Source: an uncultured Candidatus Saccharibacteria bacterium
GTDB lineage: Bacteria > Patescibacteriota > Saccharimonadia > Saccharimonadales > UBA7683
Reading direction: 5' to 3'
Length of the DNA: 64,000 nucleotides
NCBI GenBank assembly: GCA_964632215.1
Contig: CAZWBG010000001.1
Span: 46,589 to 110,588, forward strand
Part shown: one piece after another, positions 4,646-54,353 of the stretch
Numbering within the stretch: position 1 is the stretch's first letter
How the letters are laid out: each line of letters begins with the position of its first letter
Notes under the pieces: generated by a model
What the model saw: the letters and a program-made list of their open reading frames with translations, nothing else
What the model was told of the DNA's origin: nothing
Database searches by the model: none
Made by a program: the position numbers and the translations under genes

Positions 4646-4732
4646 GGGCGAGTGGCGGAATTGGTAGACGCGCGGGATTCAAAATCCCGTTCTAGCAATA
4701 GAGTGAGGGTTCAATTCCCTCCTCGCCCACCA
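4646..4732 (+). tRNA. tRNA-Leu (anticodon CAA), type II long variable arm, CCA encoded
   Basis: Hand-folded cloverleaf. Acceptor gggcgag/ctcgccc. Anticodon stem cggga/tcccg with loop ttCAAaa. Long variable arm ttctagcaatagagtg. T arm gaggg-ttcaatt-ccctc. Discriminator a plus cca. Confidence 0.9.
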
Positions 4733-35991: not shown

Positions 35992-38900
35992 TTATGAGGT
36001 GTAATTGTCAATGAGTGTTCGTTCAAAAGCTTGAATGCCTTTAAGGTTTGGTTCAAAGCCGCTAGTATCTGGTAAGTCTAGTGCTAGAATTTTCTGCCAG
36101 ACAGCAGAAATCAGCTGTGTGGTGTATGCAACATCTTCCGATGTAAACTCGTATTCGAGCGTCACGCACTCACTACTTTGAACGCTTGGTTCTACAAACA
36201 CTAGCTGACCCTTGGTCACTGTATACTGGCTGAAATCACGGGAATTTTCTACCAGTAACTTATAGAAGATCAGCTGCTGCTTATATTTATGTAGTTTAAT
36301 ACGTTCAAAATCATCCTTTCCTACCCAATCAAGCGGTGCTTTACCAGTTTTGTAATCTACTACTAATGCTGTTTTATTAGTCTCATTTAGCACAAGTTTA
36401 TCAATAGCACCACTGAGATGGGCTTTGCCAAGTAGTACTCCTTGGTTTCTAAAGCTTAGTTCACTTTTGTCTTGTTCGCCGAAGGTTTGACCACATTGCT
36501 CAAAGAAGGAAGAAAGAGCTGCAATTCCTCGTTCGGTGTAGAGCTTCTCTTCTACTTCGTTCAGGTGATACTGCTTGAGTGAGCGCATGAATTGTCTTGT
36601 GACTGCGCTGATATCAATTTTCCGCCGCTGGGTAAATTCTACATGAGCTTTGTGGATCGCAGCATGTATGGCACTACCATAGCCTGCGCTTGGCCCCATT
36701 GCGGTTGGGAATTGCAATAAGTTGTGCAGCAGAAAAGTCTGCGGTCCGGCTTGGGCGATATCAATAAAGTTATTTAGGTGGGTGCTAGAAAGTTGGTAGT
36801 CTTCGAGTGTACCGTGGAGTGACTGTTTGAGACTTGTTTGTACACTTTCCAAATGTGGTGCTCGCCAGTCAAATTCTAGAGTTTGTATGAGCTTCGCCTG
36901 AGTTGGAGTAGATTCCATAACCTCTTGGTCGAGCGGACTACTATTGAGGTAGCTCACGGGTAGCGAGAGCTTGTCTTTGTCATCATATTGGTAGCTAGAA
37001 ATATATAGCTGTTGTTTGGCACGGGTCATGGCCACGTAGAGGAGGCGCTTTTTGTCATCACTACTCTCACCCGCCCGTTCAATCGGCAAGTTATGTGGTG
37101 GCTTAATGGTGCGTGGGCGTGTGCGGCTTTTTTCTCCCCAAATTGTATCTTGAGCTTCAATAATGAAGACGGTATGAAACTCCAGGCCCTTAGATTTGTA
37201 GGCTGTCATAAGTTCTACGGCATCTTGGTGCGCCAAATGTGGATTGGTATCGATAATATTGATACCAGTTTTCTTGTGCAGCCGAACGAATTCTACTAAA
37301 TCACGCAGTTTTAGGGGTTGGTCGGGTCGGAATTCTCGTAGTTTTTGGCGGAGTACGCGCAGGTTGCTTAAGAGTTCGAGGTAAATTGTGGGCTGGCTAT
37401 GGAGTTTGGAATTGCTAAAGTAGAAGCTCCGAAATGGTGAGTTAAATGATTCACCCGTCTCGTGTATACCAGGCCCAATGAGCTCATCTACAATGTGCTC
37501 TAGGCTTTCAAATCGTGCGAGTTGGGCGGTCTCAAGCAACCAATTAGCAACTTGTATCACCTTAGTATCTTCACTTTCTAACATGATTTCGAGCCAATAC
37601 TTCGGTTCCTCGTAGGTGCTTTGTCGGTAGGCTTCAAGAGATATGCGCCAAATTTGCTGTGGCTTTAAATTCCAGAAAGGATAGCTAAGTATCTCGGGCA
37701 GTAGTGCGTTGGCTTCGGTATAATCTTCATCAACCAAGTACTGCACTATCTGTGCGAGTTGAACCAGTTGTGCAATGTGGGGCTGCTGCAGTACATTGTC
37801 ACGTCGTTCGTAGGCCAGGGGTATGTTGGCTTGCATGAGCGAACGAGCAATGATCTGCAAGTATTTATGTCGCGGTGCCAAAATTGCAATATCGGCCGAC
37901 TTAATACCGGAGGCGATTAATTCCTGAACACGCTGTGTAACCCACTGCTGCTGAGATTGAGGACTCAGAAATGAAATTTGTAGGGCAATTGCCACCTTGC
38001 TGGTGGGCTGTTTGGCTTGTAACTGCTTACTGACACCAAAGCTTCGTGAGATACGCTCTTCTATTTTTTCGCCAACTTCGTGGGCACCGTTGAGTATCGC
38101 CTGAGTTGAGCGGTAGTTTTCATTCAGATCTACAATTTTGGTATCTTGCCAGAGCTCGGCAAAAGTACGCATATTACTGACCTGTGCGCCCTGGAAGGCG
38201 TAAATTGCTTGGTCATCATCTCCTACCGCCAAAATGTTGGGCCGACCCTCGTTAACCGGGTTACTACCCAGACTTTGCATAATACGTAGCTGTGCACCAT
38301 TAGTATCTTGAAACTCATCTATGAGAATGTACTGAAATTGCTCCTGCACCTTAAATCGTAGCTCTTCGTCTTGCTCAAGCGCTAGTACTACTTGCAGAAT
38401 CATGTCATCAAAATCAAGCAGCTGCTTTTCTTGCAGTTTCTTAAGATACTGTTCATAAATATCTGCAACTTCGCTCAGTAGTTGACCTCGGCGGTCATCC
38501 TTCATACTCCAGGTACCTTGATGGTTCTTCTCAAGCCATTCGTTGCGCCAGGCGGTGATAGGTTTAGTAGAGTTGGTTTCTTCCGATTGGGCGATTGCTC
38601 GGCTGGCTGATTCTCGGCAGAGTGTGGCAAGCGGTGGCCACAAAGCTACGCCTTTAACATCTTGTACCTGGATAGTTTCGATGAGTTCAACAAAAGCTGG
38701 AATGACTGCCTTAGAAAGTCGCGGTGTATCAAAGAGTTTGCTGAATTTTGGCTCAATAGTTTTAATAAATTGCTGGTTTGTAGCAATAATTGCTCGTACT
38801 TCATTAGGTGTCAGACCAGCCTGTTTAAGTTCGGCAATGGCCGAGCGGGTGTCAGGCAGGTAGACAAAATCTTCATTAAAGTGAGTGCTGAGCTTATTAC

Positions 38901-46352: not shown

Positions 46353-47375
46353 ATGAGTCGGTATAAGATAGCGACCGTTTGTTATACTAGCTTGGTGATA
46401 GACTTTGATTTACCCAAGGAGCTTATTGCTCAGGAGCCAGCGCAACCGCGAGATCATGCTCGCCTTTTGGTGTATAACCGCGCAACTAAGCAGATTACTG
46501 ACGATTACTTCTATAATCTGCTAGAGTATTTGCCTGATCCCACCTGCGTGGTGGTTAATAATTCTAAGGTTGAGCATTGCCGAATGCTCTTTAAAGATGG
46601 CAAACAAGAGATCTTTATCTTAGAGACGGTTAACGATAAAACAGTACGAGCTTTGGTGCGTCCGGGTAAGTTATTTCGTCTTGGAAAGAGCCTGCAGCTG
46701 ACTGAGAACGTATCGGTTACGACAACCGCTATAGATGATGACGGTATTCGTACTCTGGAGTTCTCGACTACTGTCGATCATCCAGAGTTGGTGGCGGCTC
46801 AGCATGTTCCCCTCCCTCCATATATTGCTCAGAATGATACTTTAGCTGAAGAGTACCAAACGATTTATGCCAAAGATATTGGCTCTAAGGCGGCACCGAC
46901 GGCAGGGCTTCACTTCACACCAGAACTTATCAGGAAGATAAAAGATACTCGAGATTGGCAAGAGGTTACGTTGCATGTTAGTCTTGGTACCTTTGCACCG
47001 CTAACCGATGAGCAGCGAGCAGCAGGCAGGTTGCATAAAGAGACCTATGAGATTACTGAGCTTGCCGCGGAGGCTATTACGAGAGCGCCACACATTACGG
47101 CAGTCGGTACCACGAGTGTTCGCACCCTCGAGAGTAGCTGGATGGATGGTAGCCTGCAGGCTGGAAGTGGCTCGACAGACATTTTCATCCAACCAGGATA
47201 TGAATTTAAACGGGCTAATGCACTGATTACTAATTTTCACCTACCTGGTACCAGTCTACTACTTATGATTGAGGCATTTGTGGGGTCAAAAAGTGAACTT
47301 ATGACAATATATAGTCATGCAATCGAGCAAAAATATCGTTTTTACTCCTTTGGTGACGCTATGCTCGTCTTTTAG
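46353..47375 (+). CDS. queA: S-adenosylmethionine:tRNA ribosyltransferase-isomerase
   Basis: DFDLPKELIAQEPAQPRDHARLLV; AAPTAGLHFT; GTTSVRTLES; YRFYSFGDAMLV. The true start may be slightly downstream. Confidence 0.85.
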   Translation: MSRYKIATVCYTSLVIDFDLPKELIAQEPAQPRDHARLLVYNRATKQITDDYFYNLLEYLPDPTCVVVNNSKVEHCRMLFKDGKQEIFILETVNDKTVRALVRPGKLFRLGKSLQLTENVSVTTTAIDDDGIRTLEFSTTVDHPELVAAQHVPLPPYIAQNDTLAEEYQTIYAKDIGSKAAPTAGLHFTPELIRKIKDTRDWQEVTLHVSLGTFAPLTDEQRAAGRLHKETYEITELAAEAITRAPHITAVGTTSVRTLESSWMDGSLQAGSGSTDIFIQPGYEFKRANALITNFHLPGTSLLLMIEAFVGSKSELMTIYSHAIEQKYRFYSFGDAMLVF

Positions 47376-47679
47376 CTGCAAGCCATTGTCTGCGGATTTG
47401 ACGGCGCTCTGTTTCAGTTATACCACCCCAGATACCACTATCTTGATTAGTAGTTAGGGCGTAGTCTAAGCAGTCGGCCTTGACAACACATGCGTCGCAT
47501 ATTGTTTTGGCGGCTGCTATCTGTGCAAGAGCTGGGCCAGTGTTACTTTTCGGAAAGAAGATATCTGGATCTGTTCCTCGACATTTTGCATAGACTTGCC
47601 AGTCGTCGCCATCTTCTCTTTCATTTGGTATAGCGTTAGGGTTAGACATAATGTATACATTATACAACATACTTGTCAT
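47359..47679 (-). CDS. whiB: WhiB-like (Wbl) iron-sulfur transcription factor
   Basis: C-x(n)-C-x2-C-x5-C (AKCRGTDPDIFF ... CDACVVKADC); GIWGG turn; basic tail RRQIRRQWLAAKRRA. The alternative start ATG 47649 lies 9 nt after an internal TATAAT. Confidence 0.8.
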   Translation of the reverse strand: MTSMLYNVYIMSNPNAIPNEREDGDDWQVYAKCRGTDPDIFFPKSNTGPALAQIAAAKTICDACVVKADCLDYALTTNQDSGIWGGITETERRQIRRQWLAAKRRA

Positions 47680-49096: not shown

Positions 49097-49171
49097 TGGG
49101 GCGTGGCCAAGTGGTAAGGCATCGGCTTTTGGTGCCGACATTCGGGGGTTCGAATCCCTCCGCCCCAGCCA
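49097..49171 (+). tRNA. tRNA-Gln (anticodon TTG), CCA encoded
   Basis: Hand-folded. Acceptor tggggcg/cgcccca. Anticodon stem tcggc/gccga with loop ttTTGgt. T arm ggggg-ttcgaat-ccctc. Discriminator g plus cca. Confidence 0.9.
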
Positions 49172-49179
49172 TGCAAAGT

Positions 49180-49204
49180 GTCGAGTCTTCTGACTCGACT
49201 TTTT
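49180..49204 (+). terminator. rho-independent terminator of tRNA-Gln
   Basis: gtcgagtc-ttct-gactcgac followed by ttttt. Confidence 0.7.
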
Positions 49205-49327
49205 GCATCTTTGAGTCGGTGAGGTTTAAACACGCGAGTGAACATTCGGGGTGAGAAATGCCTGTGGCATTTCGCAAGGAAACCTACTCTTCAAAACTAG
49301 TTTTTGAAAGCTGTAGTTTCGGGCCTG

Positions 49328-49364
49328 CTGAAAGTAGGTCGAATCCCTCCGCCCCAGCCAAGAC
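49328..49364 (+). repeat. att-like junction copy R1 (contains an exact 22-nt duplicate of the tRNA-Gln 3' end)
   Basis: tcgaatccctccgccccagcca at 49339-49360 is identical to 49150-49171. Flanked by ctgaaagtagg and agac. Followed by hairpin 49381-49402 plus T-run. Confidence 0.85.
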
Positions 49365-49518
49365 GAATGATCACCATAAGAAGCCATCAAATCGAATGGC
49401 TTTTTGTATTTCCACCCCAGTTGATCATTTTTTAGCACAAGGTTCTGAAGTACTAAATTGAATAACTCACGCTTTTGCTCTACTTCAGAAACGGTACTAA
49501 CTAGTAAATCTTGAGGGG

Positions 49519-50499
49519 TTATTTTCTTGGCACAAAGAGTTTGTCGGTATTATGAATTACAAAGACTCGTCGCATTAAGTCTTCTTTTATATCTTTTGAA
49601 ATGCGTCCGTATTGCAGAAAACGCTCCTGTACAGCCTCTTTAAAAGAATTCTCGGTCCTAACAGATCTCCGTGACCGAGCGGTATAGGTGGTGTCATACT
49701 TATGAATGATGACATATCTACTATTAGATACATTCATCCAACTGATAATTTCTCTCCAGATGTAACTATCGGTCTCTCCCATGGATGCGCCAAAGAGAAC
49801 CACGACACTACTTAATCTAAGAGTTTTTCGAAAAGCTTCTAGTCGACCGTCATTTGCTGAATCAATTAACTTTGATTTGATAAGGTCATTCTTCTCACGA
49901 GTTGACATCCCATCATACAGTTGAGACTCATCACTCACTCCAAGTGTCATGTAAAGATCGACTGTACCGTGAAGATGTTGGGGTAATTGTAAATTGTAGC
50001 CGCGTGGTGTTAGGATTTTATCACCTGCGAGAATTTTTTCTAACGTCTTTGTATAGTTTAGTGACACGAAATTTAAGTAGACTGGTAAACTTTGCAGGAT
50101 GCCTCTAACAATGTTGTATTGACCATCGTTAAGTCCATCGAACAATCCTTTTTCGTCGGCAGCAAACTGAAATTTGTCTGGTAGGTTCTCAATAGACTTT
50201 TCTTGACTATCTAAATAGTCTGCCAGGTCATCACGAACTCTATCCAGCTCTTCGTGGAACTTAATAGACTCATCTTCGCGCTTGCTTTCGGGTAACTTTC
50301 CAATATAGGAAGTGTGTTCGCCAAGACTTCTCTCAAAATCTGACCAAGTATCAAGATTACCACTGATCTCTTTGTATATTCGGTTGCTTCCAATATGATC
50401 TTTTTCTATTACATAAGCGTAAAAATCACTATACTTTGTCTTCAGTTCAAGCGATAGATCCAGCCCATTGCCGATAATGAATGTAACTTGTGCTGCCAT
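49519..50499 (-). CDS. AbiH-like abortive infection protein
   Basis: N-terminal FIIGNGLDLSLELKTKYSDFY, WSDFERSLG, LNYTKTLEKIL, HLHGTV, VVLFGASMGETDSYIW. Collinear, from memory, with the AbiH family (PF14253). Confidence 0.65.
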   Translation of the reverse strand: MAAQVTFIIGNGLDLSLELKTKYSDFYAYVIEKDHIGSNRIYKEISGNLDTWSDFERSLGEHTSYIGKLPESKREDESIKFHEELDRVRDDLADYLDSQEKSIENLPDKFQFAADEKGLFDGLNDGQYNIVRGILQSLPVYLNFVSLNYTKTLEKILAGDKILTPRGYNLQLPQHLHGTVDLYMTLGVSDESQLYDGMSTREKNDLIKSKLIDSANDGRLEAFRKTLRLSSVVVLFGASMGETDSYIWREIISWMNVSNSRYVIIHKYDTTYTARSRRSVRTENSFKEAVQERFLQYGRISKDIKEDLMRRVFVIHNTDKLFVPRK

Positions 50500-50578
50500 A
50501 CCTTTGTCCTTAATATTTATACCATTGTAGTATGACAGATTTACATCTTATGCCAAGTTTCGTTGACCTAAATTCTTT

Positions 50579-50609
50579 CTGAAACGTGTGCATTAATCCC
50601 AGCCAAGAC
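50579..50609 (+). repeat. att-like junction copy R2 (short form)
   Basis: ctgaaacgtgtgcattaatcccagccaagac. Followed by hairpin agaacctc-tgtttt-gaggttct (50621-50642), a T-run, and TGtTATAAT (50649-50657). Confidence 0.7.
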
Positions 50610-50648
50610 ACTTGTGTTTTAGAACCTCTGTTTTGAGGTTCTTTTGTT

Positions 50649-50657
50649 TGTTATAAT
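50649..50657 (+). promoter_or_regulatory. extended -10 promoter giving a leaderless mRNA for the HIT-like gene
   Basis: TGtTATAAT; the ATG at 50665 lies 7 nt after the -10. Confidence 0.5.
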
Positions 50658-50664
50658 TTTAGTA

Positions 50665-51144
50665 ATGAATGAAATAATCCTAGAAACTGAGAATTTTGCT
50701 GTTGAAGTACCGGTGCAACCTTTTGTAAGCCGTGAAGATGGTGGACACCTACGCATCATGTCAAAGCTTGATGTGAAAGATCGTACTGAGTTAACTCTCG
50801 ATCAGACTATTGAATATGCCCTACTCACAGAAGTTGTTGGCAAGGCTCTGGAGCTAACAATGACAGATCAAGGTATAGATATTGGCAACATAAACTGGCA
50901 AGAAATGGGAAACTGGAGTGTATTTAAGCCGGAAGGAATAAGACTCCATATGCATATATTTGGTAGAGCGAAAAATGCTGAGATTCAAAAATATGGAGAA
51001 GCAGTTAAATTACCGTTTAGAGATACTGGTTTCTATGACGATTTTTATAAGTTAAGTGATGATGATATATCCAAACTTAAAATTAAAATGCGAATAATCT
51101 TACAAAACGCTAAGTTTGCTACTCTGACAGAAAAGTTGACTTAA
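50665..51144 (+). CDS. HIT (histidine triad)-like protein
   Basis: ILETENFAVEV..., GGHLRIMSK, and a triad-like RLHMHIFGR. Start trimmed from TTG 50644. Confidence 0.5.
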   Translation: MNEIILETENFAVEVPVQPFVSREDGGHLRIMSKLDVKDRTELTLDQTIEYALLTEVVGKALELTMTDQGIDIGNINWQEMGNWSVFKPEGIRLHMHIFGRAKNAEIQKYGEAVKLPFRDTGFYDDFYKLSDDDISKLKIKMRIILQNAKFATLTEKLT

Positions 51145-51171
51145 ATAAGTAACTTGGAGATTGCTGTCTTC

Positions 51172-51202
51172 CTGAAACGCTTTCATTAATCCCAGCCAAT
51201 AC
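51172..51202 (+). repeat. att-like junction copy R3 (short form)
   Basis: ctgaaacgctttcattaatcccagccaatac. About 80% identical to the R2 module over about 95 bp, including the hairpin (agaacttcc-tag-aggagttct) and TGcTATAAT (51241-51249). Confidence 0.7.
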
Positions 51203-51240
51203 GCTTACGCTTTAGAACTTCCTAGAGGAGTTCTTTTATT

Positions 51241-51249
51241 TGCTATAAT
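51241..51249 (+). promoter_or_regulatory. extended -10 promoter giving a leaderless mRNA for the HAD-like gene
   Basis: TGcTATAAT; the ATG at 51256 lies 6 nt after the -10. Confidence 0.5.
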
Positions 51250-51255
51250 GACGAT

Positions 51256-51642
51256 ATGAAAACAATACTTGTAGATGCAATCAATGGGCTCATTCTTGAA
51301 GACGGAACTATCTTTCGGAAAATGTACGAAATGCTGGAAACTTACCCCAACTCTAAGATTGTCCTCACGGGTGCAAATGATGAACAGTTTGAGAAGTTTA
51401 ACCTAGGCAAGTCGCCTTACGAAGTCTTTACGCTTAAACACAATCCAGAAAAGACAGACCCTAGCTATTTCAAAATTCTTTTAGAGAAGTTCAATCTAAA
51501 ACCGCAAGACGTTATCTACTTCGAGCATAATATCGATGCAACGAAATCAGCTGAATCCATAGGGATCAATTCATACTTCTATGACCACACAAAAGAAGAT
51601 ATCGTTGCACTTAAAGATTTTATTGACACTAATATTTCATAG
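51256..51642 (+). CDS. small HAD-like hydrolase-fold protein (degenerate motif I)
   Basis: ILVDAINGLI in place of DxDxT; VLTGAND; YFEHNIDATKSAESIGI. Confidence 0.45.
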   Translation: MKTILVDAINGLILEDGTIFRKMYEMLETYPNSKIVLTGANDEQFEKFNLGKSPYEVFTLKHNPEKTDPSYFKILLEKFNLKPQDVIYFEHNIDATKSAESIGINSYFYDHTKEDIVALKDFIDTNIS

Positions 51643-51653
51643 GCATCTTCTTT

Positions 51654-51684
51654 CTGAAACATACCCATTAGCTCCCGCTATAAC
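51654..51684 (+). repeat. att-like junction copy R4 (degenerate short form)
   Basis: ctgaaacatacccattagctcccgctataac. Followed by hairpin aatactctg-attttc-ccagagtatt, a T-run and TATACT. Confidence 0.5.
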
Positions 51685-51826
51685 ATTTATGTTTAAATAC
51701 TCTGATTTTCCCAGAGTATTTTTCGATGATATACTGCTGGTATGATTACAATAATTTTTTGGTGAAGCATTGGTTAGTAGCATTAAAGACGCTCTTCAGT
51801 AGGCTAAAATATTATAGGATAACGAT

Positions 51827-53344
51827 ATGAACAGAGCAATTGACAAAGACGTCTACGATAAATATCTGAAGAAACCATGGTATCTTCACCAACTTACAAT
51901 GTCTATCTTATTCGCGGCGTGGATTTTGATTATCCCGCCTATTATCGGAATTGCTCTGCTCATTGTGAACACCAAAGACAATAAAAAGAAAAAACAACTT
52001 CTAGCAGATCTTAGCATTGATAAAGTTATTCAGCTCGATGTTCTAGAAAAGCAAATCGCTGATAAAATAAAGCACGATAAAGCTCTCAATGCCCTTACTG
52101 AGATTAAAGGTCGTTACACATCAACTAAGGATGAATTAGATAAGCTGTCGGCTGAGATAGCAAAGAAAACGGAACATAATCAGTCGCTCACAACTCTAAG
52201 CGGTGTCCAAAAGGAACTGACTAAACTTAAAGAGCAATACAAGACAAGTAAGGAAAAACTTGCTGAGCTTGCAGGGAAGATTATCGAAGCCGAAAACGAA
52301 GTTGATCTACAAGAAGCAGGTTTTTATGGACTTGACCTTGATGTTTCAACATCTGCGGAATATAAAACAAAGATGATTGAGCTGCAAGACAAGCAAAAAG
52401 ACATGGTTAAGAGTAAGACTGCGTGTGATTTCTCTGGTAGCGTCACTTGGAATAATAGCCTGACTGACGGCAAGAAGATGGTTCGTCAAAGTATCAAAAT
52501 GAAACTATGGTCTTTCAACACTCATTGCGACAGCGTAATTACGAAAGTAACATATCGCAACCGTGCATTGTCTGAAAGAAAGATACAAAAAGCATTTGAT
52601 GTGCTTAACGCGAACGATAATCTTTCTACGATTAGCTATGATTATTTGCAGCTGAAGCTGGAAGAGCTTGGTGTCACCTTTAATTACAAAGAACAACTTA
52701 AGTATGAAAAAGAACTGTTACGTGAGCAACGCGAACAGGAGCGTGAAGAACGCAACCTTCAGCAAGAAATTGCACGCGAACGAGCCAAGATTGAAAAAGA
52801 TCAGACACATATCAACACAGAACTTGCTCGTTTACAAAAACTGCTACTTGAAGAAAGAAACGATAAGCAAACGCTACAAAAAGAAGTTGATGGGCTTGAA
52901 CAAAAACTCCAGAAACTTAATAAGCGGAAAGAAGAAGTGGACTTTCGCGAGGCGCATGCAAAAGCTGGATATGTCTATGTAATATCAAATGTCGGTGCAT
53001 TTGGTAAAGATGTTATTAAGGTTGGGGTCACTAGACGTCTTGAGCCTATTGAGCGTATTAATGAGCTTGGTGATGCGTCTGTTCCGTTCCGATTTGACGT
53101 GCATGCACTTGTCTTTTCTGATCATGCTTTTAAGCTTGAAAAAGCACTCCATGACAGATTTTCAAAACAGCGCATGAACCAAGTCAACAGTAGAAAAGAG
53201 TTCTTTAGAGTGTCGCTTGAAGAAGTGCGCAAGGCCATTACCCAAGAGTTTAATGGTAATTCCGTAGAGTTCCATATGCAGCCAGAGGCAAGAGAGTTTA
53301 GGCAAAGTATTGCGAAACTGAGACTAAAACAGCAGAGTCGATAA
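51827..53344 (+). CDS. DUF4041-like coiled-coil protein with a C-terminal T5orf172/MUG113 (GIY-YIG-like) domain
   Basis: N-terminal TM; long coiled-coil (EKELLREQREQEREERNLQQEIARERAKIEKD). C-terminal GYVYVISNVGAFGKDVIKVGVTRRLEPIERINELGDASVPFRFDVHALVFSDHAFKLEKALHDRF. Confidence 0.6.
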   Translation: MNRAIDKDVYDKYLKKPWYLHQLTMSILFAAWILIIPPIIGIALLIVNTKDNKKKKQLLADLSIDKVIQLDVLEKQIADKIKHDKALNALTEIKGRYTSTKDELDKLSAEIAKKTEHNQSLTTLSGVQKELTKLKEQYKTSKEKLAELAGKIIEAENEVDLQEAGFYGLDLDVSTSAEYKTKMIELQDKQKDMVKSKTACDFSGSVTWNNSLTDGKKMVRQSIKMKLWSFNTHCDSVITKVTYRNRALSERKIQKAFDVLNANDNLSTISYDYLQLKLEELGVTFNYKEQLKYEKELLREQREQEREERNLQQEIARERAKIEKDQTHINTELARLQKLLLEERNDKQTLQKEVDGLEQKLQKLNKRKEEVDFREAHAKAGYVYVISNVGAFGKDVIKVGVTRRLEPIERINELGDASVPFRFDVHALVFSDHAFKLEKALHDRFSKQRMNQVNSRKEFFRVSLEEVRKAITQEFNGNSVEFHMQPEAREFRQSIAKLRLKQQSR

Positions 53345-53394
53345 GCTGTGTACTCCTTTGTTTGCAAAGGTGTGACGACCGAGTCTTAGCCATT

Positions 53395-53439
53395 CTGTTC
53401 GAAATAGGTTCGAATTTCAGCGTGCAATGGAGCCAAAAG
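53395..53439 (+). repeat. att-like junction copy R4b (long form, retains a T-arm-like ggttcgaat)
   Basis: ctgttcgaaataggttcgaatttcagcgtgcaatggagccaaaag aligns with R1 ctgaaagtaggtcgaatccctccgccccagccaagac. Followed by hairpin ttatccgc-tgtg-gcggataa (53461-53480). Confidence 0.5.
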
Positions 53440-53737
53440 GTATTTATACAAACGAGGGGGTTATCCGCTGTGGCGGATAAGACACACAGTTTTGGTCAAT
53501 GCATTCAGTGTGAAAATGCTCTGTGACTATTTACAATTAACACTAGTTGTTGTATAATGTGTATTCGGTAAGATTAATTCTTGCTGACTACTATCTGAAA
53601 TATGAGGTAGTGAAGAGGGAATATTTTTCTCTTCTGTTCTTTAACGTGCTAGCTCAGTCACCTTATTTGAGGTAGGTCAATCGTCATTAAAGTAATTAAT
53701 GGTGTTTGGCCCACCTCAAAACTAACAAGGAGACACT

Positions 53738-54163
53738 ATGGGTAAGCGAATGGCAAGTGTTGCACTGGCAGTCATCACCGTCCTGGCGATGGCTAGCTGC
53801 AGCAGCGACGCTGATGTGGCATCGGACAACCTATCCAAGAAGGCCGAGCAGTTCGAGATCAACCGCCGCATCGTGTTCTTCAACGGTATCACCGACGTCT
53901 ACATGATGACCATCGAGGGCTTCTGCTCCATCGAGGCTGATGCCGCCGATACCCAGCTGGAGGTGACTTGCAAGGTGGGCGAGGATGCCTATAAGAAGCA
54001 CTTCCTTGGGCTGTCTGACAATGTCTCGTACTTTGTCGAGCAGATCGAAGCCGCTAACGTCGACGTTTACCACTACCAGGTGATTTTCAAGCCTGAAGTC
54101 ATTATTCCTGATATCCGAACGGAGACGTCTGGCGATGACGGCGGTGAGGAAGGTAGCAACTAG
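53738..54163 (+). CDS. lipoprotein (GC-rich cassette)
   Basis: Signal peptide with lipobox-like VLAMASC; SD AAGGAG; GC-richer than the flanks. Confidence 0.65.
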   Translation: MGKRMASVALAVITVLAMASCSSDADVASDNLSKKAEQFEINRRIVFFNGITDVYMMTIEGFCSIEADAADTQLEVTCKVGEDAYKKHFLGLSDNVSYFVEQIEAANVDVYHYQVIFKPEVIIPDIRTETSGDDGGEEGSN

Positions 54164-54213
54164 AGCTTCGGCTTGGTGAGCTAGCACTAAAAAATCCTAA
54201 GAAATCCTTAGGT

Positions 54214-54263
54214 CTGTACCGAAGGTATATGATGGTTACCATCGCACAATACCTTCGGTACAG
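54214..54263. repeat. 15-bp perfect inverted repeat hairpin after the lipoprotein gene
   Basis: ctgtaccgaaggtat (54214-54228) pairs with ataccttcggtacag (54249-54263). Confidence 0.6.
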
Positions 54264-54323
54264 CTAGAGTCCGTAAGTATTACTTGCGCTGATGAGATCT
54301 GAAAGATCGAAACTCAACCCTTC

Positions 54324-54353
54324 CTGAAACACATCCATTAACCTCAGCCAATA
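54324..54353 (+). repeat. att-like junction copy R5 (short form, last copy seen)
   Basis: ctgaaacacatccattaacctcagccaataa. Followed by gccaataaa...tttattggc. Confidence 0.5.

Follow-up and report, generated by a model that had tools for sequence, protein, structure and literature searches.

We analysed a 64,000-nt stretch of DNA (hereafter the window) from an uncultured Saccharibacteria (TM7) bacterium, in which a tRNA-Gln gene is followed by a conserved structured element, termed here ELEM, and by an array of mostly single-gene cassettes separated by copies of a short junction motif (Table 1). Phage-defence and other single genes stacked in this way behind tRNA-Gln look like an undescribed integron-like gene-capture site. 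The array comprises four units of 1245, 593, 482 and 2670 bp from core to core, each beginning with a terminator and ending with the reiterated site, with a promoter module in three of the four and mostly one gene each. The encoded proteins are those that a preliminary description, made from the sequence alone, had proposed: AbiH, a weakly HIT-like and a weakly HAD-like protein, a DUF4041/T5orf172 protein (PD-Lambda-1) and a GC-rich lipoprotein (Phage_VG64). Its five cassettes reduce to four inter-junction units: one gene per unit holds for most, but the junction that it placed at 53395 is unsupported, so that the PD-Lambda-1 and VG64 genes share one interval.

The assignment to Saccharibacteria agrees with the RumA-type methyltransferase encoded beside the tRNA, which has one 100% identical entry and next relatives at ≤71% identity, those with a source name being labelled Saccharibacteria; among the matches listed from a genome collection, this protein found only distant Lentisphaerae, at 24–27% identity. 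A Logan contig (L033) is identical to window positions 37698–58987. The tRNA-Gln(TTG) gene is divergent from RumA, WhiB and QueA, and the pairing of RumA with tRNA-Gln is conserved, about 31 of 80 metagenome RumA loci having the tRNA in the same position and orientation. All comparison loci (L-numbered below) were reached through three proteins only, RumA and the HIT-like and HAD-like proteins.

Table 1. Features of the tRNA-Gln array and homologues of ELEM. Positions are those of the window unless a comparison locus is named.
Feature	Position	Strand	Evidence
tRNA-Gln(TTG), encoded CCA, array anchor	49097..49171	+	ARAGORN; Rfam tRNA 65.2 bits
Intrinsic-terminator-like hairpin and T-run directly 3′ of tRNA	49180..49205	+	Terminator scan
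ELEM, conserved structured element of ~160 nt	49208..49368	+	nhmmer, RNAalifold, covariance model 138.7 bits
Hairpin AAGCCAT/ATGGCTT and T-run after ELEM, cassette 1 start	49381..49405	+	Sequence; fold
Cassette 1 gene, AbiH-family abortive-infection protein, 326 aa	49519..50499	-	PF14253 2.9e-30; PADLOC AbiH
Junction R2 (CCA-equivalent ends 50605)	50572..50607	+	Pattern search (chance 0); nhmmer E=8.6e-9; alignment
Type-A module: hairpin 50621-50642, T-run, TGTTATAAT at 50649-50657, 7 nt before ATG	50608..50664	+	Terminator scan
Cassette 2 gene, HIT-like protein, 159 aa	50665..51144	+	Pfam HIT PF01230 0.003, below cut-off
Junction R3 (core ends 51198)	51166..51200	+	Pattern search, nhmmer, alignment
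Type-A module: hairpin 51214-51234, TGCTATAAT at 51241-51249, 6 nt before ATG	51201..51255	+	Terminator scan
Cassette 3 gene, small HAD-like protein, 128 aa	51256..51642	+	TIGR01509 1.2e-5, below cut-off; PDB 3kbb 0.003
Junction R4 (degenerate core CCCGCTA ending 51680)	51648..51682	+	nhmmer E=3e-6
Type-A-like module: box TTTATGTTTAAATAC, hairpin 51696-51720, T-run, TGATATACT at 51727-51735	51683..51735	+	Fold z=-5.3; promoter scan
Cassette 4 gene a, PD-Lambda-1-type defence protein (DUF4041/SNIPE + T5orf172), 505 aa	51827..53344	+	PADLOC PDLC03976 3.6e-127; Pfam
Cassette 4 gene b, lipoprotein, family Phage_VG64, 141 aa	53738..54163	+	Pfam PF25682 7e-57
Junction R7, distal array end (core ends 54350)	54320..54352	+	Pattern, 2 mismatches; nhmmer E=3.8e-7
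ELEM homologues	L078 7612-7776; L051 8042-8204; L079 9162-9323; L080 8362-8519; L064 8105-8277; L057 2760-2916		

The junction (family JUNC) is a motif of about 34 nt with the consensus ATTCTTCCTGAAACGCATCCACTAGYCCCAGCCA, composed of a left arm of about 25 nt and a core. Its last 8–10 nt, (A/G)TCCCAGCCA, equal the terminus of tRNA-Gln, whose terminal ...CCCCAGCCA contains the core common to the junctions; the remainder of the motif is not tRNA-like. The short-form pattern matched at 50579, 51172 and 54324 with 0–2 mismatches, with 0 matches in 100 shuffles, and a profile search supports a further copy at 51654 (E=3e-6). Four of the five additional copies listed previously thus stand, but the one at 53395–53439 (R5) matched neither the junction profile nor that of ELEM and was rejected as a junction or ELEM remnant; near it lies a marginal local alignment (53501–53545; score 32 versus a null of 21±2.9, null maximum 34). 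All four copies fall within 49–54.4 kb and the remaining ~58 kb of the window contain no short-form junction, so the motif is not a generic intergenic repeat there. Downstream of the tRNA-Leu gene (4646–4732), nothing comparable to the tRNA-Gln array was seen.

The same motif recurs in seven other genomes (L056, L057, L065, L080, L081, L085 and L103; E 3e-10 to 4e-7) whose RumA proteins are about 50–55% identical to that of the window and whose intergenic DNA is otherwise unalignable, and its link to tRNA-Gln therefore extends to distant Saccharibacteria. An alignment of 11 junction copies has 13 invariant columns in one block, and conservation collapses on either side of it. In tRNA-holding loci, all junctions lie 0.4–5.2 kb downstream of tRNA-Gln on the tRNA's strand. 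They keep this strand even when the preceding gene runs the other way, as do AbiH in the window, a 249-aa open reading frame (ORF) in L080 and a 183-aa histidine phosphatase in L065. This independence from the strand of the cassette gene indicates that the motif belongs to the array and not to a transcript 3′ end; behind co-oriented genes it begins 0–27 nt past the stop codon.

The junctions had been described as progressively decaying tRNA 3′ ends, with R1, the copy of the tRNA end closest to the anchor, as a long form of the same site. Neither proposal was supported. Compared with the tRNA and with the sequence left of R1, the 25-nt arm is no more similar than shuffled sequence (shuffle p 0.45–0.9), which gives no significant support to a derivation of the arm from the tRNA or from the 3′ part of ELEM, or to the long and short forms being one junction. 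Because the arm lacks tRNA similarity and is conserved across genomes, junctions are better described as a conserved arm plus a short tRNA-derived core of 8–10 nt than as degenerating tRNA copies. Exact window-type junctions gave 0 matches in Joint Genome Institute (JGI) metagenomes, as the CATTAA variant of the window is lineage-specific. Among viral contigs, a 16-mer scan returned 29 matches, all of them chance coding-sequence matches without the CTGAAAC context, while the long form with AAGAC and the cross-genome consensus each returned 0; these scans thus give no support to a phage-borne attachment site (attP).

The exact repeat of the last 22 nt of tRNA-Gln at 49339–49360 (R1; chance expectation 0) was correctly reported, but it is not a plain attachment-site (att) duplication. 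R1 is the 3′ end of ELEM, whose 5′ part is the reverse complement of the T-arm and 3′ end of the tRNA. Searches with nhmmer recovered ELEM homologues in eight other loci. The element lies beside tRNA-Gln in L078, L051 (three copies), L079, L064, L080, L103, L125, L129 and L131, and in L057 it is located just past a junction. Its 3′-terminal ~20 nt equal the host's own tRNA-Gln 3′ end with at most one base off in the window, L078, L079 and L080, tracking the species-specific substitutions of the tRNA. The RNAalifold model has five helices; of its 49 pairs, 22 show compensatory changes. Paired cells amount to 89% versus 78% in shuffles (0/500 shuffles reach the observed value), and the 22 double-change pairs compare with 9.6±2.2 in shuffles (0/500 reach 22) and with 5–9 when partners are slid. 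In an Rfam search only tRNA passes the threshold, the best other families having E≥0.26, far below their gathering scores. ELEM is thus a candidate for a new structure, modelled here from covariation, and may function at the RNA level or as a DNA fold. The possibility of a group I tRNA intron was rejected, since ELEM sits outside an intact tRNA. The L080 element has the same 3′ flank as that of the window (49381..49405), and a hairpin similar to that directly behind the tRNA occurs at the equivalent position in L036 and L039.

Variant ELEM copies lie upstream of tRNA-Gln in L103 (7043–7198), L051 (8392–8552) and L058 (7012–7157). In L103 and L051 the copy is joined to sequence resembling the 5′ half of tRNA-Gln (acceptor strand and D-arm), and in L051 one hairpin is duplicated in tandem; the fusion and the duplication suggest a tRNA-derived origin of ELEM.

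Each cassette opens with a hairpin. Of the hairpins and T-runs reported behind every copy, those after R1, R2, R3 and R4 were recovered, whereas R7 is followed by a hairpin that lacks the T-run. The module shared by R2 and R3 exists, although its identity, given as about 80% over some 95 bp, is 72% over ~93 nt and 82% over the best 55 nt. TGnTATAAT-type boxes do lie immediately ahead of start codons, TGTTATAAT 7 nt before the ATG at 50665 and TGCTATAAT 6 nt before that at 51256, and this promoter-adjacent arrangement recurs in many related loci. Given that proximity, the predicted transcripts of cassettes 2 and 3 are probably leaderless; the same had been said of the cassette genes, but that of cassette 4 starts 91 nt past TGATATACT and so is not. 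Modules related to 50608..50664 follow tRNA-Gln in L088, tRNA-Asn in L127 and ELEM in L129; that at 51201..51255 is homologous to the module preceding the HAD gene in L130 and L131; and the box of 51683..51735 also follows tRNA-Gln (L065/L085) and a junction (L081).

Many small Saccharibacteria genes begin 6–7 nt after a TGnTAnAAT box behind a T-run. The arrangement is seen in the window at 50649–50667 and 51241–51258, and the box just before a small-gene start is found in L037, L065, L085, L088, L127, L129 and L130 as well, suggesting that leaderless transcripts with extended −10 promoters may be widespread in the lineage.

The AbiH gene runs opposite to the array strand. The HIT-like protein has 247 homologues at 55–76% identity, some named HIT hydrolase by JGI, in which the start ATGAATGAA is kept; the HAD-like protein has 3113 at 70–86%. 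The VG64 gene, with its own promoter-like site at 53530–53558 (promoter scan), has a G+C content (GC) of 54.5%, compared with 36–42% for the cassettes and 44.8% for the window. Its homologues comprise 937 phage records, the best from Mycobacterium phages at ~61% amino-acid identity, and phages that infect the actinobacterial hosts of Saccharibacteria are its probable source. In a plasmid collection, matches were confined to the inside of the PD-Lambda-1 and VG64 genes. A VG64 homologue is called 'recombination directionality factor' in two RefSeq phage records, the GenBank versions of which say hypothetical.

Recognised defence genes cluster here and in related arrays, as expected of an anti-phage defence island: AbiH and PD-Lambda-1 in the window, and TIR_2, DUF4238, HEPN_Swt1 and DUF5343 elsewhere. 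Related arrays also carry small hydrolases (NUDIX, HIT, HAD/NT5C, histidine phosphatase and RNase H), extra aminoacyl-tRNA-synthetase-like genes and radical SAM enzymes, so that defence and non-defence genes are mixed. In the window, the array would store AbiH, PD-Lambda-1 and possibly the VG64 lipoprotein as two or three genes for defence or exclusion, and the rest of its cargo appears to be two small, widely conserved hydrolase-like genes.

Several comparisons support cassette exchange at the core. Two near-identical strains, L130 and L131, are 97.6% identical over 7.2 kb (HAD cassette, junction, heliorhodopsin and ABC transporter) and unrelated upstream, and the identity starts at the core CAGCCA ahead of the HAD cassette module. 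On the variable side (positions 1–4930 of L130 versus 1–2024 of L131), the tRNA-Gln end of L131 is accompanied by ELEM, by three genes and by junctions with the ending CAGCCAAG, while L130 has genes for an S24 peptidase, TIR_2, an 82-aa protein and DUF4238, a set that looks like a defence system. Near-identical strains thus differ in cassette content with the breakpoint at the junction core, a comparison that the preliminary description had proposed as a check. Between L085 and L090, which are 95.6% identical through RumA and the tRNA, homology ends at the last tRNA base. None of the five cassette proteins of the window was found at the RumA locus of 80 relatives (~31 with adjacent tRNA-Gln).

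The site at which one and the same cassette is docked also differs between genomes. With its module, the HIT gene (69–75% amino-acid identity) comes directly behind R2 in the window; in L129 it is preceded by the end of ELEM, and in L127/L128 by the CCA of tRNA-Asn. The complete genome CP064993.1 (L039) has this cassette within a run of same-strand small genes, with displaced tRNA-Gln ends and a short ELEM upstream, and the intergenic regions of this array contain CAGCCAA six times on the array strand versus once on the other. Modules behave likewise: 'GCTTATGTTTAAATAC-hairpin-TTTTTGTTAcAAT-ATG' follows tRNA-Gln (L065, L085), a junction (L081) and R4 (window); the 'TTTAGAAC' variant follows tRNA-Gln in L088 and R2/R3 in the window; and an 'AAAAAG-CCTAGG-hairpin' terminator is found behind tRNA-Gln in L078 but behind junctions in L057 and L085.

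The anchor, too, can differ. L127/L128 (9868–12245) hold an array anchored on tRNA-Asn(GTT), with the HIT-like gene directly after the CCA. The L127 junction variant TTGCGAAGCTCRYCTAYTAG....AGCCA, present in two copies, is 19/30 identical to the Gln type, and behind each of the L127/L128 junctions TTGCGAAGCTC...AGCCA stands the terminator/promoter module that also follows tRNA-Asn. Further variants occur in L129 and L131; in all, arrays besides that of the window were seen in L065, L103, L127, L129 and L131. Junction copies from one genome are closer to each other than to those of other genomes, and the denominator common to all variants is AGCCA, corresponding to A72, the discriminator G73 and the encoded CCA of the tRNA.

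The absence of a recombinase or transposase, already remarked on in the preliminary description, was borne out: no such family was detected in the region, in the precomputed annotation of 37.7–59 kb or in another 30 of the window's large ORFs, and Phage_integrase and Resolvase had no match among the ORFs scanned from arrays. The only mobility genes seen at arrays are an HUH Rep (L057) and IS110/IS66 near the L039 array. An insertion sequence or miniature inverted-repeat transposable element was rejected for the array itself, as its junctions are repeated directly, a transposase is absent and the rest of the window has no copy.

The L057 gene (274 aa; +1666..+2490 downstream of tRNA-Gln, minus strand) encodes an HUH rolling-circle Rep (PF23343, REP_ORF2-G2P) between tRNA-Gln and the junction with ELEM, and the region may be an integrated single-stranded-DNA element. 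In L037 (8840–10411), a genome of the same study, a HIT-like gene is followed at the contig end by a large serine recombinase (Resolvase + Recombinase); the junction motif is absent from that site.

We think it somewhat more probable than otherwise that the locus is a gene-capture array anchored on a tRNA 3′ end, in which cassettes recombine at the AGCCA core. A cassette would open with a short terminator, in most cases joined to an extended −10 promoter, then hold a single gene (occasionally two) and close with the ~25-nt arm, whose end is the core (C)AGCCA that matches the last bases of tRNA-Gln (A72, discriminator G73 and encoded CCA). Cassettes would be gained, lost and exchanged through site-specific rather than homologous recombination at this core, presumably by way of a circular intermediate, the partner being the tRNA end, ELEM with its tRNA-like 3′ end, or a junction already present. 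Each insertion would deposit an arm and core distal to the new cassette, so that the array would grow from the tRNA and older cassettes would be displaced outward. The head terminator would insulate the cassette from upstream transcription and the putative promoter behind it would drive the gene, in cassettes 2 and 3 probably as a leaderless transcript. On this reading the enzyme is not array-encoded and would have to act in trans.

More tentatively, Saccharibacteria and perhaps other Patescibacteria might share an integron-analogous platform in which the AGCCA end of tRNA-Gln or tRNA-Asn is the primary site and arm plus core the cassette site. Its cassettes would be insulated, self-promoted and often leaderless, ELEM would serve as a docking site or RNA cofactor, and the recombinase would be encoded elsewhere and belong to a family not yet linked to cassette capture.

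Several observations weigh against capture at the core. No recombinase appears in the window or among the ORFs scanned from other arrays, and the mechanism is inferred; no circular or excised cassette forms were observed, raw reads not having been examined. The junction shows no clear dyad symmetry or attC-like hairpin in DNA folds of both strands, its only inverted repeat (TTCYGAAAC / GTTTWAGAA) spanning ~27 nt and occurring in some junctions only, and the sequence right of the core is not universally conserved, so that the site does not resemble the usual core of a tyrosine recombinase. Across the phylum, RumA is less conserved than the HIT-like and HAD-like genes, which may be old residents rather than recent arrivals. 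The comparison loci were those reached through RumA, HIT and HAD, and the specificity of the junction applies to the window and to these loci; as the collections hold no close relative of the source genome (nearest RumA at 100% and then 71%), the dynamics of the window's own array are unseen.

The locus could instead have grown by tandem accretion, larger integrase-bearing islands or prophages having entered tRNA-Gln serially and decayed to one gene each, with the junctions as leftover att sites. tRNA-Gln is indeed a general hot spot in the phylum, with longer copies of its 3′ end (18 nt tested, up to 2 mismatches) 0.1–6.3 kb downstream in L036, L051, L075, L078, L085, L111 and L121, a 1.1-kb insert with ~95-nt repeats in L121 that its sister L122 lacks, and the HUH Rep gene between tRNA and junction in L057; serial integration displacing older elements is also documented (bioRxiv 10.1101/2020.12.28.424599). 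We nevertheless hold this account to be unlikely: the arm is conserved in distant genomes rather than decaying, the junction is tRNA-derived for only 8–10 nt, the single-gene units are tightly packed with junctions 0–27 nt past the stop codon, no integrase or integrase fragment was found in the arrays scanned, and repeated independent decay to exactly one promoter-bearing gene per unit is improbable.

One of two further accounts dispenses with a dedicated recombinase. That the unrelated sequence immediately left of the L130/L131 breakpoint, which falls at the core itself, leaves no homology arm on that side argues against natural transformation and homologous recombination in which the tRNA and the junction/module repeats (35–95 nt) serve as short homology arms; nor does this model need the phylum-wide conservation of the 25-nt arm, or an orientation strictly fixed relative to the tRNA. 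Natural competence has been reported for Saccharibacteria, the R2/R3 junctions and modules are 72–82% identical over 55–95 nt, modules are common to tRNA and junction contexts and junction copies are more alike within than between genomes, all of which fit this model, and duplication or deletion by the same route could explain shuffling inside arrays; as an account of the whole we rate it a little below accretion, and doubtful. It is very unlikely that the junction is merely an RNA-level or regulatory motif of small genes (3′ untranslated region, processing or terminator-associated), locally copied and without a role in DNA rearrangement. Its usual place just past a stop codon and ahead of a terminator, and its move with the HAD gene into a tRNA-less locus (L132), would suit such a motif, but it keeps the tRNA orientation even beside a gene of the opposite strand, its terminal core is common to the anchor tRNA and changes with it (Gln versus Asn), and strain breakpoints coincide with it.

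Set beside known systems, capture at the core follows an integron-like logic, yet three defining integron features are missing. As in sedentary chromosomal integrons and clusters of attC sites lacking integron-integrases (CALINs, likewise arrays without an adjacent integrase), one anchor is followed by an array of mostly co-oriented single-gene cassettes with a short recombination-site-like sequence right behind each ORF, and content varies, as shown by the four window units and by the difference between L130 and L131 at the core. The copies are most alike within a genome, and attC sites of chromosomal integrons are likewise more alike within a genome than between genomes. Unlike integrons, in which attI lies next to intI, the anchor here is a tRNA 3′ end, with no recombinase family by the tRNA or among the larger ORFs of the 64 kb. 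The 34-nt junction is conserved in sequence and gives no imperfect attC hairpin, only the downstream terminator stem being stable in folds of both strands. Integrons rely on the common cassette promoter Pc, whereas here three of four cassettes (2–4) have a TGnTATAAT-like −10, the VG64 gene has its own promoter-like site and all cassettes have a terminator-like hairpin. The integron comparison made earlier therefore stands for the anchored array, the reiterated site and the variable content, but not for intI, hairpin attC sites or promoterless cassettes.

The accompanying statement that no equivalent has been described was too strong, as arrays of partial tRNAs arising from repeated integration at a tRNA are known. 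The tycheposon islands of Prochlorococcus are tRNA-seeded and grow by repeated integration (bioRxiv 10.1101/2020.12.28.424599). Like the present array, these islands start at a tRNA, newer insertions displace older ones outward, partial tRNAs are scattered through them and their cargo includes defence genes. They differ in having tyrosine recombinases, replication modules, kilobase length and true partial-tRNA repeats of ~40 nt, compared with units of 0.5–2.7 kb, no integrase or remnant seen, and 8–10 tRNA-derived nucleotides plus a separate ~25-nt arm. For a conventional tRNA island, the direct repeat of the tRNA 3′ segment is exact over 22 nt at R1, but that is the end of ELEM; the other junctions share 8–10 nt, and neither an integrase nor a remnant was found among the array ORFs scanned.

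The cis-mobilizable elements (CIMEs) and accretion arrays of streptococci consist of att-flanked units without recombination genes, mobilized by an integrase in trans and accreted in tandem at one site. The present units resemble them in being flanked by sites, in lacking recombination genes of their own and in their tandem arrangement at one site; CIMEs, however, are deletion derivatives of identifiable integrative and conjugative elements with a cognate integrase in the population, and no parent element is known here. In the pdif modules of Acinetobacter plasmids, small modules are bounded by short conserved sites used by a host Xer recombinase encoded elsewhere. Those dif sites are inversely oriented 11-6-11 dyads, whereas the junction has no such dyad and all its copies are direct; a 28–31-bp site with two inverted 11-bp arms and a 6–11-bp centre is absent from the 34-nt consensus, and a dif/Xer-like reading of the junction together with the 'TTATGTTTAAAT' box was dropped because the spacing does not fit. 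Our literature searches yielded no account of such arrays from Saccharibacteria or Patescibacteria; the one related paper on tRNA that turned up concerns group I introns in anticodon loops.

That the array represents a distinct cassette-capture system is a real possibility. Patescibacteria have tiny genomes with few recognisable mobile elements, and very little is understood of the ways in which they gain and rearrange accessory and defence genes. If capture at the core is correct, a conserved tRNA-anchored cassette site would provide a concrete, testable route of gene flow in the phylum, and the junction would be a landmark for variable genes in metagenome bins. Genetic tools for cultivable Saccharibacteria would gain a candidate insertion point that is neutral and self-insulating, and the system would constitute a second, independent answer to the integron problem, built on a tRNA end and self-promoted cassettes.

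Other kinds of insertion were seen at tRNA-Gln. In a clade at 93–96% nucleotide identity, the site is empty in L122, and the 1.1-kb insert of L121 (1–1300, tRNA-oriented coordinates) is flanked by repeats of ~95 nt that comprise the tRNA 3′ end and a terminator; L111 and L115 have the same two modules in opposite order, and the junction type of this clade differs from the 34-nt motif. In L098 (76–478), compared with L069 (76–88; both tRNA-oriented), an insertion of ~390 nt replaces 14 nt right after the tRNA-Gln CCA, with ~95% identity downstream. Its small ORF, judged from the translation, presumably resembles a GIY-YIG nuclease, and represents another insertion type at this tRNA. L051 carries a 6-kb island between two ELEM copies (+296..+5993 downstream of tRNA-Gln) that encodes a prolyl-tRNA-synthetase-like protein and a radical SAM enzyme; three more of its ORFs we take to be synthetase-like, radical SAM-like and small peptidase-like, and the island is possibly a peptide-modification cluster.

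Beside the array, a WhiB-family regulator (47359–47679, minus strand), of a kind typical of Actinobacteria, adjoins RumA in the window and in related Saccharibacteria loci. In sample SRR16797981, contigs L035 and L124 overlap by 30 nt, the end of one with the start of the other, within the tRNA 3′ end (49139–49168). A branch in a k=31 assembly graph would leave such an overlap, which hints at strain heterogeneity at the anchor.

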